From the sequence record OR352941.1: a DNA stretch of 64,000 nt. One strand, given 5' to 3'. The position numbers were made by a program, and so were the translations under genes. The notes beneath the pieces are model-generated. The model searched no databases, had not been told where the DNA came from, and was given only the letters and a program-made list of their open reading frames with translations. Of this stretch, positions 9,452 to 16,609 are shown one piece after another (the first letter of the stretch is position 1; each line of letters opens with the position of its first letter). This stretch comes from Escherichia phage AV111.

Positions 9452-9484
9452 TAAATTGTACCACAATCCTTGTGGTATGTAAAC
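9452..9484 (-). promoter_or_regulatory. T4-type early promoter
   Basis: plus-strand gtaaac 9479-9484; spacer inverted repeat taccacaa / ttgtggta. Confidence 0.4.
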
Positions 9485-9894
9485 TACTTTTTCTTATGTT
9501 GGATATTCCAAGGCGGGTTGAACTTTTTGATAAAAAGTGGTTCTTCAAGGTCCATTGTTGCGATGGTCATTGAACCAAGTTCGTTGGTGACTGAAAGGTC
9601 AAAACATTGGCGGGCCCAGAATTCAACCTTTTTGCCTTGCATTAAGGCATCCAAAATCATAAGTGATTTTCTTGAATCTGAAGTCTGGTCTTTTCGATTT
9701 ATGGCTGTTCGATAATAGTTAATGCGTTTCTTTAAATTCTTGGTTTTACCAATATACACGAGTTCGTCATCTATAGCAATAGCATATATGACATTTTTCT
9801 TATTAGGGACATCAACTGTTTTAATTGTTGCATCTTCTAATAGCTCCAATTCTGTATATTTAATAAAGGAATATTCGGCGGCGATATCTTTCAT
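9484..9894 (-). CDS. denA: endonuclease II (GIY-YIG family), 136 aa
   Basis: GIY-YIG-like VYIGKT ... RINYY; length matches T4 DenA; position between rnlA and nrdB. Confidence 0.8.
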   Translation of the reverse strand: MKDIAAEYSFIKYTELELLEDATIKTVDVPNKKNVIYAIAIDDELVYIGKTKNLKKRINYYRTAINRKDQTSDSRKSLMILDALMQGKKVEFWARQCFDLSVTNELGSMTIATMDLEEPLFIKKFNPPWNIQHKKK

Positions 9895-9898
9895 AATA

Positions 9899-9917
9899 AA
9901 GTGGGACCGAAGTCCCG
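9899..9917 (-). other. stem-loop GGGAC-UUCG-GUCCC between nrdB and denA
   Basis: gggaccgaagtccc at 9902-9915. Confidence 0.35.
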
Positions 9918-9920
9918 TCC

Positions 9921-10423
9921 TTAGAAATATTTTTTGTATGAATTGATTACATTTTGGTCTACATCATTATCAATTTGTGCGACAAGATAAGAACTGATTT
10001 CAACTTCTTGTGGGGCTGCTTGAACCAAATCAGAGTTCAAATACTCACGAATCCATGGAATAGGATGACGAGTTGATACGTCTTTAAGAGGACATGGCAG
10101 ACCACAACTACGCATACGAGACACGGTAAGATAATCCACAAATTCACTTAGGATTTTAACATTTAGACCTGGAAGAGCACCATCTTTAAACAAGTGTTCA
10201 GCCCATTCTTTTTCTTGAGCGTTAACTTCCATGAAAATATCAACTGCTTCTTGTTCACACTCTTGAGCAATTTTGACCCATTCATCACCGTCTTCGCCAT
10301 CTTGTAAAGCACGAATAATATATTGAGTGCCCTTGAGGTGAAGCTGTTCATCACGAGCAATGAACTTCATAATCTTGGCATTACCTTCCATGATTTCCAT
10401 GTTCTTATGGAAGTTAAAGGTAC
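9921..10423 (-). CDS. nrdB: ribonucleotide reductase small subunit NrdB, exon 2
   Basis: Frame continues CTFNFHKNMEIMEGNAKIMKFIARDEQLH... when joined to exon 1 at the GCG-T / GT-ACC junction; ends ...SYKKYF. Confidence 0.8.
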
Positions 10424-11514
10424 CGTTATGTTCGATTGAGCTCGCTAATTCTCAACCCGTTCTCTTATGAACTGCTACATATTACTATGCAGACCAGACT
10501 ATATCACAATCCCGGAGGGATTCTCCCCATTTCGAGTCGCTTGACCCTACGTCCGAAGACTAGTCGTTGAACCTTGCTTTGCAATTGTCGCCGTGCCATC
10601 GTTTATATGTTGATGGTGATAAATCTTTCTTATCACAATATGGACAATTCAATTGAATTCTATTTGGATTTAATTTACATCTGTCATTATGTTTTAGATA
10701 AAATCCAGGACCTTTACCAATGTGACCACAGAAATCACATGTGATTTCTTTTTGTGCAGGATGGGTCCCGTTCTTAACCATTTCTAATGTTTTTGCTGAT
10801 GTTCTTTTCTTATGGTCTTCTGATAAGAAATGATGTGAACCGTCATTTACCCGTTTTGATTGAGTTTCTGACTGCATTTTACCACCGCAAAATACATGAG
10901 TACCTTCTTTTATAGCTGCAATATTACGTTCTTTGACTTTTGCAACATGCTCAGCTTGTTGAAAATTATGTATACCTAATGCAACTCTATTTAAATTAGA
11001 TTTACGTTGTATTTCACCACCTAAAAGATGAAATGTACCATTTTCTATCTTAGATTTAATAGAGGCAATATTTTTAGCTCGTACTTCAGGGATATTAAAA
11101 ATCTGGATTTCTCTAGATTTTGCGGCTTTAGAAGCTAATTCAGAAATTTCTTCAGGAGAATATTTCATTCTAAGCTTTATAGCATGACAAGCCTGGTAAT
11201 CTTTTTGAGCTAAATGTATATCATAATGTTCCTGTATAGAAAGGCACATCAAATTATCTAAATCATTATTTTCACGGTTACCGTCTTTATGATGGATTTC
11301 GTATGTTCTTCCATCAGAATCTTTAGGTATAGGTCCGTTAGCATCTATCCAAATTTTTCTATAGTTCAATTGTGCATCCTCTTAAAAGTATAATCATATT
11401 TATATTATACTAATTAAAGGTGCAAGCAAAACCTTGGCTGCTAGTTTTCCTATAAAGGACTTTCCAGCAATTAAAGGAGTTTTCGATAAACGTTACCGTT
11501 TAAAGGCGCATTTT
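10424..11514 (-). mobile_element. group I intron in nrdB (about 1.09 kb) carrying an I-TevIII-like homing endonuclease ORF
   Basis: Exon 1 ends with U (…UUU GCG U), intron ends with G (…CAUAACG); splicing restores codon UGU and the NrdB reading frame. Confidence 0.7.
10560..11369 (-). CDS. intron-encoded HNH homing endonuclease, I-TevIII-like, 269 aa
   Basis: HNH motif region (YEIHHKDGNRENNDLDNLMCLSIQEHYDIH) plus C-terminal Cys-rich zinc finger (CDFCGH ... CPYCDKK); inside the nrdB intron. Confidence 0.8.
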   Translation of the reverse strand: MNYRKIWIDANGPIPKDSDGRTYEIHHKDGNRENNDLDNLMCLSIQEHYDIHLAQKDYQACHAIKLRMKYSPEEISELASKAAKSREIQIFNIPEVRAKNIASIKSKIENGTFHLLGGEIQRKSNLNRVALGIHNFQQAEHVAKVKERNIAAIKEGTHVFCGGKMQSETQSKRVNDGSHHFLSEDHKKRTSAKTLEMVKNGTHPAQKEITCDFCGHIGKGPGFYLKHNDRCKLNPNRIQLNCPYCDKKDLSPSTYKRWHGDNCKARFND

Positions 11515-12190
11515 ACGCAAAAGATACATAAAAACGAATTGCTTCTAAGGCATTAATAACGTGCAAACAGAGGTAAAGAGATTTCATTAGCTCACGCTTC
11601 CAATATGTCTCATGCTCAATAGCATCTTCAATAACGTCTTCGTCTGCATTAATTTCTTTTTGGTATTCGATATCAGCTTTAGCGTTTTCCCAATAACGAG
11701 CTTTAACCAGAACATCATCATAATATCGTCCGATAGATTCGGCACGCTTCATAATAGCTTCATCTAATACAATCTCATCAAACACCTTCGATGGATCTGT
11801 ATAAAGATTTCGCATAATATGAGTATATGAACGAGAGTGAATAGTTTCACTGAAAGTCCATGTAGCAACCCATGTATCTAATGAAGGGTCTGAAAGCAAT
11901 GACATAAGTACCGCAGATGGTGCTCTACCTTGGATAGAATCTAATAATGATTGATACTTAAGGTTGTTGGTAAAGATGTCCTGTTGGAACTGTGGAAGCT
12001 TATTAAACTGGGCCGAATCCAACATCAAGTTTACTTCCTCGGGACGCCAAAAGAACGAGAGCTGCTTTTCGATAAGCTCTTCAAAAACTTTATGACGCTG
12101 AATATCATACCGTGCGAGGCCAAGACCAGAACCAAAGAACATCGGTTCATTCAAAACATCGACTTGTTGTGTGTTAAAAACTGTACTCAT
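11515..12190 (-). CDS. nrdB: ribonucleotide reductase small subunit NrdB, exon 1
   Basis: Class Ia R2 sequence ... ALEAIRFYVSFA; the in-frame stop immediately after is intronic. Confidence 0.8.
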
Positions 12191-12245
12191 TATATTTTCT
12201 CACCTAGTTATTAACTCATCCATGAGTAAATTATAATAAAAAGTC

Positions 12246-13235
12246 TTAAAGCTTACAAGCAGAACAATCTTCTGCTTTAGGTGTTTCTAATTCATAGTCG
12301 TCTGTACCAGACCCATCACGAGTGTTATGATAGTAGAGGTTTTTTCCGCCAAAGTACCAGAAGTAAAGCAGATCGTCAAGCATTACTGACATTGGCACTT
12401 TACCTTTCTCAAATACTGCAGGGTCATAGTAAGTATTAGCAGAAGCAGATTGGCACACCCATTTCAACATGATAGCAACTTGGGTCAAATAAGGTTTATT
12501 ACCTTTCTTAGCAAGTTTCCACGCGTAGTCGTAAAGACTCATGTTATGTTCTATATTAGGAACAACCTGACGGAAGTTGCCTTCTTTAGATTCTTTAATA
12601 CTTACTGGACCACGTGGTGGCTCAATCCCGTTTGTAGAGTTTGATACTTGACTGCTTGACTCACAAGGCATGAGTGCAGACAACGTTGAGTTACGAATTC
12701 CATGTTCTTTGAGTTCAGCTCGAAGTTCTTCCCAGTCACAGACGTAGTTCGGGGCTGCGATTTGGTCAATCTTTTTATTGTACCAGTCGATAGGTAATTC
12801 GCCTCTAGACCATTTAGTGTCTGAATAATACTCGCAACATCCTTTTTCTTTGGCGAGTTTGATTGATGCTTTGATAAGGCCATATTGCAATCTCTCAAAC
12901 AATTCATGAGTCAAATCGTTAGCGTCTTCATATGAAGCAAAGTTAGAAGCTAACCATGCGGCATAGTTCGTCACACCAACACCGAGGTTTCGACGCTTTT
13001 TAGCTTTTAAAGCTTCTGGAACCGGATAATCTTGATAGTCTAACAGGTTATCAAGTGCACGTACTTGTACTTCAGCAAGTTCATTAATTTTATCTTGGTC
13101 TTGCCAATCAAATTTATCTAATACAAAAGCAGATAATGTGCAAAGGCCCACTTCACCTTTGTTTTCAATAACTTGTATTGTTGTATACTCATCATCTTCG
13201 TAAAATTCATCTACAAATTCATAATCAATATTCAT
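12246..13235 (-). CDS. nrdA: ribonucleotide reductase large subunit, C-terminal piece (nrdA-b), 329 aa with about 26 aa novel N-terminal leader
   Basis: From GEVGLCTLSAF onward aligns to the C-terminal third of class Ia NrdA (…NSTLSALMPCESSSQVSNSTNGIEPP…, C-terminal CSACKL). Confidence 0.8.
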   Translation of the reverse strand: MNIDYEFVDEFYEDDEYTTIQVIENKGEVGLCTLSAFVLDKFDWQDQDKINELAEVQVRALDNLLDYQDYPVPEALKAKKRRNLGVGVTNYAAWLASNFASYEDANDLTHELFERLQYGLIKASIKLAKEKGCCEYYSDTKWSRGELPIDWYNKKIDQIAAPNYVCDWEELRAELKEHGIRNSTLSALMPCESSSQVSNSTNGIEPPRGPVSIKESKEGNFRQVVPNIEHNMSLYDYAWKLAKKGNKPYLTQVAIMLKWVCQSASANTYYDPAVFEKGKVPMSVMLDDLLYFWYFGGKNLYYHNTRDGSGTDDYELETPKAEDCSACKL

Positions 13236-13935
13236 TTAATTCTTCTACCTTTTTTCGAGATATTCCTAGAGCTTTAGATGCTCGATGTATTGATTGATAT
13301 TCTATACCGTTTATTTTTACAGCAATTAAGTTATGGGGTTTTAATCCCTTTGGATGAGGTTTACTGACGTATTCTTGATTATCGTTTTCAGAGATATTAT
13401 CAAGCTTTCGACACTTAAAGCCTTTATGTTGAGACCTTTTGCCTTTGCATACGGCCGACATTGCCGAAGCATTGAGTGAATGTAGTTCGCAAAATTCTCT
13501 TAGGCCTTTATGGATTTCTTCATGACCGTCCGGGAAAGTAAATACCCAAGTTGTTTGAAGTTTTTCTCTATGCTCGTCAGTTACCGGAATACCTTTGTTC
13601 CAAGCTGGTTTGCCTTTATTATTTTCAGATACAGAAATAGCCAATTTTCTTCTAAGCCACCCATGGCGTTTATTGGTGTTCTTTCGTTCAATATTATCTT
13701 CAGAATAAACACACATCATATTAGCGGCAAATACCAATTTATGATTATCTGGATATATCTTTACTAATAATTGATGAGCTATGTAATGCTCTTCGGGTGT
13801 CAAATCTACCAGGTTTTCCTTTGTATCAGAACCACCAATACACAGAGGTATAATATGGTGTGATTCGGTATAGCAATCTAATTTTCTGTTCTTAGCTTTA
13901 GAAATAAGGTTATTGTAAATTTTAGAATAATCCAT
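13225..13935 (-). CDS. HNH homing endonuclease (Mob-like), 236 aa, inserted inside nrdA
   Basis: N-terminal Mob-family signature MDYSKIYNNLISKAKNRKL...HHIIPLCIGGSDTKENLVDLTPEEHYIAHQLL; own start, overlaps the nrdA-b start by 11 nt. Confidence 0.8.
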   Translation of the reverse strand: MDYSKIYNNLISKAKNRKLDCYTESHHIIPLCIGGSDTKENLVDLTPEEHYIAHQLLVKIYPDNHKLVFAANMMCVYSEDNIERKNTNKRHGWLRRKLAISVSENNKGKPAWNKGIPVTDEHREKLQTTWVFTFPDGHEEIHKGLREFCELHSLNASAMSAVCKGKRSQHKGFKCRKLDNISENDNQEYVSKPHPKGLKPHNLIAVKINGIEYQSIHRASKALGISRKKVEELNEY

Positions 13936-13980
13936 AACTTTTCCTCTTGTTATGGATTATTTATTAACGGCCTGTGTACT

Positions 13981-15405
13981 TTATTTGCTTTGAATTATAC
14001 CGCCAGGATTAGCTTCATAAAACTTAGCTACATCCGACTTCTTAATTTTGATTAAACGGGTTTGTTGGCTATTCACATCATTAGTTGGAATAGCGATTTC
14101 ACAACATAAGTTACTTTGACGAATTGGAGCTTTTTCACGAATAAATGGAGTGTAGTTATTCGTGTTATCAACAAACTGCGGATAAATTCGAGCAGTGCCA
14201 GAACGTTCAGTCATGAACAATTCAAAGAGTTCTAGTGCTTTGATTCTTTTCTTTCTGATTGTTGGGTCTTTTTCAGCTTTCTCATAAAGCTCATGGAATT
14301 TATCTTGATCTTCAAAGAACGAGTAGTATAGTTCGCCTGACATTTCGTGAGGGCTAAATAAAGTAATATAATCATTTTTACCAAGGCGTTCCATCATAAG
14401 GTCATTAATCTGAATTCCGTAGTCCATATGTCGAATACGGTTTTCATCTACGCCTTTGTTATTTTTCAGAACTAATAGGTTCTCTACTTCTAAGTGCCAC
14501 ATTGGATAATACGCTGTAGCAGCACCACCACGAATACCACCTTGAGAACAAGATTTTACTGCAGTTTGGAAATGTTTCCAGAATGGAATAACACCCGTAT
14601 GTCGAACTTCACCCATACCGATCTTAGAACCTTCTGCACGAAGCATACCAACGTTGATACCGATACCAGCTCGTTTAGAAATATATTCAATAATTGATGC
14701 TGAAGTTTTGTTAATAGATTTTAACGAATCACCGGCTTCAATAACTACACAACTAGAGAACTGGCGAGTCGGAGTACGAGCACCTGCCATAATTGGAGTA
14801 GGCAATGAAACTTGATGAGTAGAAACGGCATCATAAAAACGAATAATATGTTTCAAACGGTTATGAGTTTCGTCTTGGTGTAAGGCCATACCAATAGCCA
14901 TGATAGCAAACTGGGGAGTTTCATAAATCTTCCCAGTTGTTTTATCTTTAACTAGATATTTTTCTTTAAGCTGCATAGCACCAGCATAAGTCAGGTCAAA
15001 GTCTCGGTCATGTTTAATCTGTGAATCGAGATAAATGATTTCTTCTGCTGAATATTGAGACAACAGCTCAGGGTCATATTTGCCTTCATTAACACAGTAA
15101 GAAATATGGTCGATAAAAGCAGGCGGTTCAAACTGCCCGTATACATCTTTACGAAGTGCAAACATTAGCCCTTTGGCGGCGACATACTGATAATCAGGTT
15201 CTTCGACAGAAATCAAGTTAGCTGCAACTTTAATACAAATCTTCTGAATATCTTTGGTGCTCATCCCATCGACAAGATGGGTCTTAATTTCTTCGTACAA
15301 TTCATATGGGTCAATTTGTGTTCCTTCACATTGCCAAGTTAAGACTTTAATAATTTTCTGTGCATCAAAATTTTGGGATACACCACTGCTCTTATTTACT
15401 TGCAT
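13981..15405 (-). CDS. nrdA: ribonucleotide reductase large subunit, N-terminal piece (nrdA-a), 474 aa with about 29 aa novel C-terminal tail
   Basis: ATP-cone/R1 N-terminus through the active-site strand NLCCEIAIPTNDVN, then diverges and stops. Confidence 0.8.
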   Translation of the reverse strand: MQVNKSSGVSQNFDAQKIIKVLTWQCEGTQIDPYELYEEIKTHLVDGMSTKDIQKICIKVAANLISVEEPDYQYVAAKGLMFALRKDVYGQFEPPAFIDHISYCVNEGKYDPELLSQYSAEEIIYLDSQIKHDRDFDLTYAGAMQLKEKYLVKDKTTGKIYETPQFAIMAIGMALHQDETHNRLKHIIRFYDAVSTHQVSLPTPIMAGARTPTRQFSSCVVIEAGDSLKSINKTSASIIEYISKRAGIGINVGMLRAEGSKIGMGEVRHTGVIPFWKHFQTAVKSCSQGGIRGGAATAYYPMWHLEVENLLVLKNNKGVDENRIRHMDYGIQINDLMMERLGKNDYITLFSPHEMSGELYYSFFEDQDKFHELYEKAEKDPTIRKKRIKALELFELFMTERSGTARIYPQFVDNTNNYTPFIREKAPIRQSNLCCEIAIPTNDVNSQQTRLIKIKKSDVAKFYEANPGGIIQSK

Positions 15406-15748: not shown

Positions 15749-16609
15749 TTATACCGCCATTTTAGCTTTGATAGCTGGATGAGATTCGTAATTTTTAAGA
15801 ACGAAATCAGAATGTGTCATCGTTCCAGTAACCCAGTCCATTTGGATTTTTGTAGGCCAATTCTCAAAATTACTAGGCCAATTAATTTCAAGAGAACATA
15901 ACTCTTTAGGTTCACGACGAAGAACTTCTTTGCATTGTTCTACATGATTGCTGTAGATATGCGTGTTGCCGCCTGAGAACACTAAATCACCTGGAATAAG
16001 GTTACACATCTTCGCTACAATATGCGTTAAGGCAGCGTACGAGGCGATGTTGAACGGCAGGCCCAAGAAAACATCTACACTGCGTTGATACCATTGTAAA
16101 TCAAGATGTCCATTACGCACATTAAATTGATAGAACATATGACAAGGAGGAAGAGCCATTTGGTCAATTTCGGCTGGGTTCCATGCAGAAACTATTTGAC
16201 GACGATCATTAGGAAGAGCTTTAATACGGTCGATAGTTTTGACCAATTGGTCTACACCACCAAAATCACGCCATTGCTTACCATAAATAGGACCAAGTTC
16301 GCCGCTATGATATCCAAGGTCTTTTGCCTGATTTTCATAGTTGTCGTCCCAAATAGTTTTACCTTCAATTAGACTGCCATGAGTACGAATACGCAAATCA
16401 TTAACATTGGTAGAACCAGACATGAACCACAGTAACTCGGCAATACAAGCTTTCCATGCTAATTTCTTAGTTGTTACTGCAGGGAATCCTTTAGTCAGAT
16501 CCCATCGTAATTTAGTTCCGAACAGAGCAATAGTGCCGGTACCTGTACGGTCGTCTGTTTCGTAGCCATTTTCTAAGATATCTTTAATCAGGTATTGGTA
16601 TTGTTTCAT
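15749..16609 (-). CDS. td: thymidylate synthase, 286 aa, uninterrupted
   Basis: Canonical TS sequence as one continuous ORF. Confidence 0.9.
   Translation of the reverse strand: MKQYQYLIKDILENGYETDDRTGTGTIALFGTKLRWDLTKGFPAVTTKKLAWKACIAELLWFMSGSTNVNDLRIRTHGSLIEGKTIWDDNYENQAKDLGYHSGELGPIYGKQWRDFGGVDQLVKTIDRIKALPNDRRQIVSAWNPAEIDQMALPPCHMFYQFNVRNGHLDLQWYQRSVDVFLGLPFNIASYAALTHIVAKMCNLIPGDLVFSGGNTHIYSNHVEQCKEVLRREPKELCSLEINWPSNFENWPTKIQMDWVTGTMTHSDFVLKNYESHPAIKAKMAV

Follow-up and report, generated by a model that had tools for sequence, protein, structure and literature searches.

The nrdB gene of AV111, a Mosigvirus-like member of the T4-type phages, is split on the minus strand by a 1091-nt insertion (11514..10424), which is almost certainly a subgroup IA group I intron of the RB3 type, with an intact I-TevIII gene in the loop of P6a. 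The element, an RB3-type nrdB intron with I-TevIII, is already known, and its intact form is not new; this nrdB intron and its mechanism have been textbook material for decades. By that mechanism, as described for T4 and RB3, the nrdB pre-mRNA would fold and exogenous guanosine would attack just 3′ of U11515, the exon base in the U.G pair of P1. The freed 3′ OH of exon 1 would then attack after the terminal G10424, giving ligated exons and a functional NrdB mRNA. Positions are given throughout in the window, the whole 64-kb stretch of DNA that was analysed.

Exons and splice junction of nrdB

The interrupted gene is laid out as follows:

11515..12190, minus strand: nrdB exon 1, 676 nt, made up of 225 codons and the U of a split Cys codon
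10424..11514, minus strand: group I intron, subgroup IA, 1091 nt, colinear and gap-free with the RB3 nrdB intron
9921..10423, minus strand: nrdB exon 2, 503 nt, starting GU ACC UUU

Read without splicing, exon 1 runs immediately into a stop codon, U|AA, across the 5′ splice site. The corresponding 225-codon open reading frame (ORF; 12190..11513, minus strand) encodes the N-terminal part of NrdB and terminates at this UAA, which straddles 11515/11514. T11515 is the last base of exon 1 and G10423 the first base of exon 2, and the intron between them starts AAAAUGCGCC and finishes ...CAUAACG. Joining 12190..11515 to 10423..9921 yields an in-frame coding sequence of 1179 nt for an NrdB of 392 aa. 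The spliced product reads ...RFYVSFA-C-TFNFHKNMEIMEG, with UGU (Cys) restored across the junction; an earlier first-pass annotation of the sequence had claimed both this codon and the restored frame, and both hold in the joined coding sequence and in its ungapped match to E. coli R2. In that match (7ai8), residues 3–388 of the joined NrdB align with an E-value of 3.6e-128 and no gap at the junction, where FYVSFACTFNF of AV111 NrdB faces FYVSFACSFAF of the E. coli protein. The ligated mRNA is predicted to read ...UUUGCGU|GUACCUUU at the junction.

The nrdB gene of Mosigvirus vB_EcoM_NBG1 is intron-less: it is missing precisely the 1091 nt of 11514..10424 and reads ...TATCTTTCGCATGCACCTTTAAC... 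at the junction. The insertion junction cannot be slid along the sequence, because the boundary bases differ between its two ends, T|A on the 5′ side and G|G on the 3′ side. Furthermore, a 182-nt probe of the spliced junction finds single uninterrupted matches, at about 96% identity, in many intron-less phages. The comparison with NBG1, the unslidable boundaries and the probe matches together establish that the splice coordinates proposed in the first pass, 11515/10423, are exact to the base, in agreement with the exon join. The bases that had been named for the two ends, U as the last of exon 1 and G as the last of the intron, are seen as T11515 and G10424.

The locus is correctly annotated as one spliced nrdB gene, join 12190..11515 + 10423..9921 (minus strand), whose intron encodes I-TevIII. 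In many GenBank records it appears instead as a hypothetical protein and two 'nrdB' fragments.

The group I ribozyme core

The intron can be laid out as a complete group I core whose two halves are separated by the endonuclease gene:

11506..11518, minus strand: P1, exon GCGU and intron A1 paired with intron U5-G6-C7-G8-C9 (GCGUA/UGCGC)
11422..11505, minus strand: 5′ half of the ribozyme core, with P2, the 5′ strand of P3, P4, P5 and the 5′ strands of P6 and P6a
11501-11497/11492-11488, minus strand: P2, with a GUAA loop
11479-11474 (CUCCUU) with 10528-10523 (GGGGAG), minus strand: P3, long-range, spanning the ORF
11469-11464/11444-11439, minus strand: P4, UGCUGG/CUAGCA, 6 bp
11459-11456/11451-11448, minus strand: P5, UCCU/AGGA, 4 bp
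11438-11436 with 10573-10571, minus strand: P6, GCC/GGU, 3 bp
11429-11422 with 10582-10574, minus strand: P6a, UUGCUUGC/GCAAAGCAA, with the ORF enclosed in its loop
10424..10582, minus strand: 3′ half of the ribozyme core, with P6a′, P6′, P7, P7.1, P7.2, P3′, P8, P9, P9.1, P9.2 and the terminal G10424
10565-10561 (GACUA) with 10501-10497 (UAGUC), minus strand: P7, direct complementarity
Between P7 and P3′, minus strand: P7.1 (GUC-UUCG-GAC) and P7.2 (GGGUC-AAGC-GACUC)
10521-10517/10513-10509, minus strand: P8, direct complementarity
10492-10486/10481-10475, minus strand: P9, with a GUAA loop

Direct inspection of the intron locates every helix from P1 to P9.2 with full complementarity, including the U.G wobble at the 5′ splice site, in which the last exon base, U11515, lies opposite intron G6 (11509). 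When a mini-intron in which GAAA stands in for the ORF is folded without constraints, P1, P4, P5, P6, P6a, P7.1, P7.2, P9, P9.1 and P9.2 are recovered; P10 looks weak by eye, at about 2 bp. The joining segments J6/7 and J8/7 are conserved between the AV111 intron and other phage subgroup IA introns, and P7.1 and P7.2, the signature of subgroup IA, place the AV111 nrdB intron in this subgroup.

At gathering thresholds, a scan of the whole 64-kb window against Rfam found no family. With E-values up to 0.1, RF00028 was the sole family in the window (33.8 bits, E = 7e-5), and the same scan gave no second group I signal. On the whole intron, RF00028 again scores 33.8 bits (E = 1.5e-6 locally), below its gathering score of 50 bits, so that this curated threshold does not by itself certify the intron; it is an operational cut-off and not a biological feature. 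The full score is low because the model is unable to bridge the approximately 840 nt between the strands of P6a, and the full-length alignment wrongly puts the 5′ half inside the ORF; the halves were hence searched separately. The 5′ 140 nt align to RF00028 positions 1–135 (P1, P2, P3 5′, P4, P5, P6 5′) with 13.5 bits, and the 3′ 116 nt to positions 112–253 (P6′, J6/7, P7, P3′, P8, P7′, P9) with 29.3 bits and an E-value of 4.7e-6.

Comparison with other phage introns gives evidence for these helices from covariation. The 3′ core has matches of 70–85% identity to introns in Staphylococcus, Bacillus, Pectobacterium, Pseudomonas, Citrobacter and Lak phages. Across ten aligned 3′ domains, 99.6% of the proposed pairs are standard and 12 pairs are changed on both sides, whereas controls in which the 3′ partner was slid by 1–3 columns are only 32–41% paired; P7.1 and P7.2 both co-vary in this alignment. 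For P2 to P9, eight ORF-less mini-introns built from phage IA introns have 96.7% of cells paired versus 38–44% in slid controls, with changes on both sides in 29 of 50 pairs. Among these eight, P3 is 100% paired (4 pairs changed on both sides), P4 91% (4 pairs), P5 100% (3 pairs) and P6 87.5% (1 pair); P8 is 100% paired, and P7, GACUA/UAGUC, is invariant in all compared introns. The count omits P1, as the exon boundaries of the distant introns are not established. When the AV111 5′ core was used as a single-sequence query in nhmmer, it matched the 5′ cores of just some distant introns; for T4 td and Ursula, the annotated limits of exon and ORF served to define the 5′ core.

The first-pass annotation had placed a group I intron in nrdB and singled out P3, P4, P6 and P7 as the helices whose absence would speak against it. 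All core helices are present, and P2 to P9 are backed by compensatory changes; of the four that were named, P3, P4 and P6 are present and co-vary, and P7 is present and invariant. From the near-identity of the core to those of RB3 and T4, we infer that the AV111 nrdB intron would self-splice in a GTP-dependent manner. The T4 self-splicing experiments reportedly belong to the literature of 1986–1988.

Related group I cores are also present, without annotation, in Staphylococcus phage V1SA20 (ON814135.1), Prevotella Lak-B8 megaphage (MK250027.1) and Bacillus phage BSP18 (MH707433.1). The copies in BSP18 and V1SA20 are compact, with their two halves close together, and the BSP18 copy lies directly after a truncated coding sequence for an RNR alpha subunit. 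In both V1SA20 and Lak-B8, the conserved P7 motifs occur a second time nearby.

The I-TevIII gene and its probable homing footprint

The P6a loop holds one complete gene, preceded by two sequence elements that may bear on its expression:

10560..11369, minus strand: I-TevIII ORF, 269 aa, initiating at the TTG that the RB3 annotation also uses
11373..11424, minus strand: hairpin over the ribosome-binding site, a predicted fold with dG −14.9 kcal/mol and z −3.4
11414..11431, minus strand: operator-like copy of the homing site, a 16/18 sequence match to the exon junction

The Pfam HNH_3 profile matches residues 4–48 of the ORF (6e-13), and the protein is identical to RB3 I-TevIII at 266 of 269 residues, and the two agree in length, in start codon and in where they lie within the intron. 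The first-pass description of a full-length H-N-H endonuclease, unlike the deletion form of T4, is borne out on these grounds. The three substitutions are Y23 for D23 of RB3, G117 for D117 and V142 for I142; Y23 lies near the H-N-H motif, three residues before the catalytic H26, and is shared with the copy in phage G2469. Alanine mutants of RB3 I-TevIII showed H26, H27, N39 and H48 to be required for catalysis (Robbins et al. 2007, PMC1865063), and all four are kept in AV111. The zinc fingers, at residues 211–231 and 242–263, retain C211, C214, C242 and C245, which are needed for zinc and DNA binding in the CX2CX12-13HX3C fingers of the RB3 enzyme (PMC1865063). These fingers had been called Cys4 in the first pass, a label that does not hold: the actual pattern in both is C-x2-C-x12/13-H-x3-C, which is Cys3His, of CCHC type. 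The AV111 ORF is I-TevIII, an orthologue of the RB3 enzyme whose biochemistry was characterized in 2007 together with the mobility of the RB3 intron (PMC1865063), with putative cleavage and homing activities. Its 3′ end (…CKARFND-stop) overlaps P6a′, P6′, J6/7 and the 5′ strand of P7; the ORF end and the core overlap likewise in T4 and RB3, in sequence nearly identical to that of AV111.

The predicted hairpin, 11424-11373, pairs the Shine–Dalgarno sequence AAGAGGA (11383-11377), which lies 7 nt ahead of the TTG of I-TevIII, and a match to the T4 late-promoter consensus, TATAAATA, runs from the top of its 5′ arm into the loop (11404-11397). For the intron endonucleases of T4, the ribosome-binding site is described as masked in long early or middle transcripts and as exposed in late ones, which are initiated within the hairpin (PMC2988022). 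In AV111, the ribosome-binding site of the endonuclease would likewise be locked in the hairpin of early and middle transcripts; late transcripts would start at TATAAATA within the hairpin and free the site, and I-TevIII would be made late. A second element concerns the homing site itself. The intron 18-mer TTTTGCTTGCACCTTTAA and the exon junction TTTTGCGT|GTACCTTTAA agree in 16 of their 18 bases. A putative I-TevIII operator, a site of autorepression, is mentioned in a review (PMC2988022), and the intron segment 11431-11414 fits such a proposed operator as a candidate site. This 18-nt copy overlaps the 5′ strand of P6a and lies just upstream of the late-promoter motif.

The exons on either side of the intron are a mosaic, with the following limits and identities:

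10357..11588, minus strand: RB3/T4-like tract within a Mosigvirus-like nrdB, comprising the intron and the adjoining 74 nt (exon 1) and 67 nt (exon 2)
Distal exons, identity to AV111: RB3/T4 71–80%, NBG1 99–100%, G2469 100%
Exon next to the intron, identity to AV111: RB3/T4 94–97%, NBG1 96–97%, G2469 97–99%

Within 11588..10357, the exons have no base that distinguishes AV111 from RB3, except for a private SNP at 11540. At the insertion site, the intron-less allele has three synonymous differences, TTC GCA TGC versus TTT GCG T|GT, which means that the GCGU needed for P1 travels with the intron. Repair from an intron-bearing allele would copy in the intron together with nearby exon sequence, and an RB3-like intron with about 70 nt of each flank inside a Mosigvirus-like gene is, as judged from these comparisons, the probable footprint of such homing and co-conversion. 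As a clear mosaic, it would illustrate neatly how an intron homes between genera of T4-like phages. Apart from correct annotation, the nrdB intron of AV111 is of little further consequence.

Over 10341..10407, positions 10407 and 10401 carry RB3-type bases in AV111 and intron-less-type bases in G2469; the exon-2 co-conversion tracts of the two phages therefore have different ends. The difference suggests separate homing or later, possibly ongoing, recombination events. As the AV111 tract in exon 2 is longer than that of the near-identical G2469, an independent and fairly recent event may have occurred. AV111 also has both RNR subunit genes interrupted by different H-N-H elements, the intron in nrdB and a mobE-like gene that splits nrdA, and the three I-TevIII substitutions could in principle alter activity or specificity. 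A reading of the copy as new in these respects, with independent and fairly recent homing or recombination into a Mosigvirus lineage, is conceivable but rather doubtful.

One alternative accepts the ribozyme and questions the enzyme: the intron would splice, but the I-TevIII variant would be inactive and the intron no longer self-mobile, as in T4. Homing endonuclease genes often decay after fixation, T4 I-TevIII being an example (PMC2988022), and of the three residues that set AV111 apart from RB3, Y23 is the one close to the catalytic H26. However, the ORF is full length with all mapped catalytic and zinc/DNA-binding residues conserved, Y23 also occurs in G2469, the 9 nucleotide differences from the RB3 ORF change just 3 codons, and the differing tract ends of AV111 and G2469 suggest separate or ongoing homing or recombination. 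An inactive enzyme thus seems unlikely, and whether the three-substitution variant would be active is the sole live uncertainty about the RB3-type intron that we favour.

Explanations without a group I intron fare worse. In one, the insertion would not splice and NrdB would be made as two assembling polypeptides of 225 aa and 159 aa, the latter from an in-frame ATG at 10400. Exon 1 does meet a stop at the splice site, exon 2 does have an in-frame ATG 8 codons downstream, many GenBank annotations give two separate 'nrdB' coding sequences, and the adjacent nrdA is a genuine case of a gene split by an endonuclease gene that lacks any intron core. Yet a complete ribozyme core with covariation-supported helices flanks the ORF in nrdB, its 5′ part the same as in RB3 and its 3′ part one P8-loop base off, where AV111 has the T4 base. 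A two-piece NrdB would also lose CTFNFHKN, 8 residues of a conserved helix that is ungapped against E. coli R2, and the NrdB pieces are without added tails of the kind needed in the split NrdA of phage Aeh1 (PMC3045599). This arrangement is very improbable, and a free-standing endonuclease gene, an intein or a group II intron in place of a group I intron is more improbable still. Free-standing H-N-H genes of the mobE type are common in the nrd region, but the ORF is bordered by about 145 nt (5′) and 136 nt (3′) of non-coding sequence that aligns with the group I model and with group I introns of other phages, and this conserved non-coding core excludes all three. An intein is also ruled out by the ORF being out of frame with nrdB, and for a group II intron, the Rfam scan of the whole window at E-values up to 0.1 gave no family besides group I.

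Neighbouring genes and known relatives

The nrdB stop codon is followed directly, at 9895..9920 (minus strand), by a hairpin, GGGAC-UUCG-GUCCC, and then a run rich in T; G2469 has an annotated terminator at the corresponding position. The next gene after the hairpin, 9484..9894, has a GIY-YIG match, and denA (endonuclease II) is annotated there in RB3, T4 and NBG1.

On the other side, AV111 nrdA (12246..15405, minus strand) is split into two genes by a mobE-like H-N-H gene (13225..13935, 236 aa) with a Pfam match that is I-HmuI NUMOD-like; in the N-terminal approximately 100–125 aa, its product shares 46–49% identity with MobE of T4 and RB3. NrdA-a (13981..15405, 474 aa) covers T4 NrdA 4–449, ends about 10 residues past the active-site NLCCE and carries a 28-aa non-homologous tail after its NrdA-homologous part, and NrdA-b (12246..13235) covers T4 NrdA 452–754 behind a 26-aa leader. 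The split site leaves too little space for an intron core. Some 32 phage records share this arrangement, ZQ3 at 98.3% among them; it resembles the genes-in-pieces nrdA of Aeh1, in which the tails of the split NrdA are essential for assembly (PMC3045599). The spacer between nrdA and nrdB (12191..12245) is 55 nt long and is free of mobE and nrdB.1; in T4 and RB3 a free-standing mobE (and nrdB.1) lies between the two genes, whereas the mobE-like gene of AV111 is inside nrdA.

The td gene (15749..16609, minus strand) is an uninterrupted ORF of 286 aa that covers positions 1–266 of the 266 in the Thymidylat_synt profile. It had been described as intron-less in the first pass, and this is correct: the T4 td intron and its I-TevI are absent from this single ORF with its full thymidylate synthase profile. 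The finding rests on ORF and Pfam coverage, as a global MAFFT alignment of the intron-bearing T4 td with AV111 td misplaced the gap. An intron-less td together with a full-length element in nrdB is ordinary variation among T4-like phages.

A 1351-nt region around the nrdB intron matches 729 phage records, 83 of them with a single place spanning 80% or more of the query. Mosigvirus G2469 and 348Ecol098PP match best, at 99.0%; RB3, RB5–RB10, Bp7 and others match at 97–99%, and several matching records (for example, RB3, RB5–RB10 and Bp7) are annotated 'I-TevIII' or 'intron-associated endonuclease 3'. G2469 (vB_EcoM_G2469, MK327934), 348Ecol098PP and PaulHMueller are Mosigvirus genomes that carry the same intron. 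The 99.0% identity of G2469 over 1351 nt includes exon sequence, and this phage has the same genus-level background as AV111; its nrdA is unsplit, unlike that of AV111.

The defining relative is RB3 (GenBank KM606994), which shares the host gene, the insertion site and the 1091-nt length, with the whole nrdB locus colinear and gap-free; its intact nrdB intron and I-TevIII are attributed to Eddy and Gold 1991 (PMC2988022). Identity to RB3 in the intron is as follows:

5′ core: 100%
ORF: 98.9%
3′ core: 99.3%

Ten base differences separate the two introns, 9 in the ORF and 1 in the P8 loop, the latter being the single core difference, at which AV111 carries the T4 base. The distal nrdB exons of RB3 are 72–78% identical to those of AV111, whose background is Mosigvirus-like. 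The T4 nrdB intron has the same insertion site and ribozyme, with a 5′ core identical except for one 1-nt gap and a 3′ core 97% identical; in P9, T4 has G-C where AV111 has A-U, with both bases of the pair changed, or G.U. A deletion of 491 nt of the ORF (AV111 11305..10815), with two 1-nt gaps, brings the T4 intron to 598 nt and removes the H-N-H domain of I-TevIII, which is intact in AV111, and the T4 intron relies on MobE for its spread (PMC2790892). Beyond nrdB, the T4 td intron (with I-TevI) and the Twort-like, SPO1-like, Pectobacterium, Pseudomonas and Lak IA introns share the core architecture of the AV111 intron, including P7.1 and P7.2. The host genes of T4 td and these other phage IA introns differ, and their endonuclease genes differ or are absent; I-TevI of the T4 td intron is a GIY-YIG enzyme, unlike the H-N-H I-TevIII of AV111.
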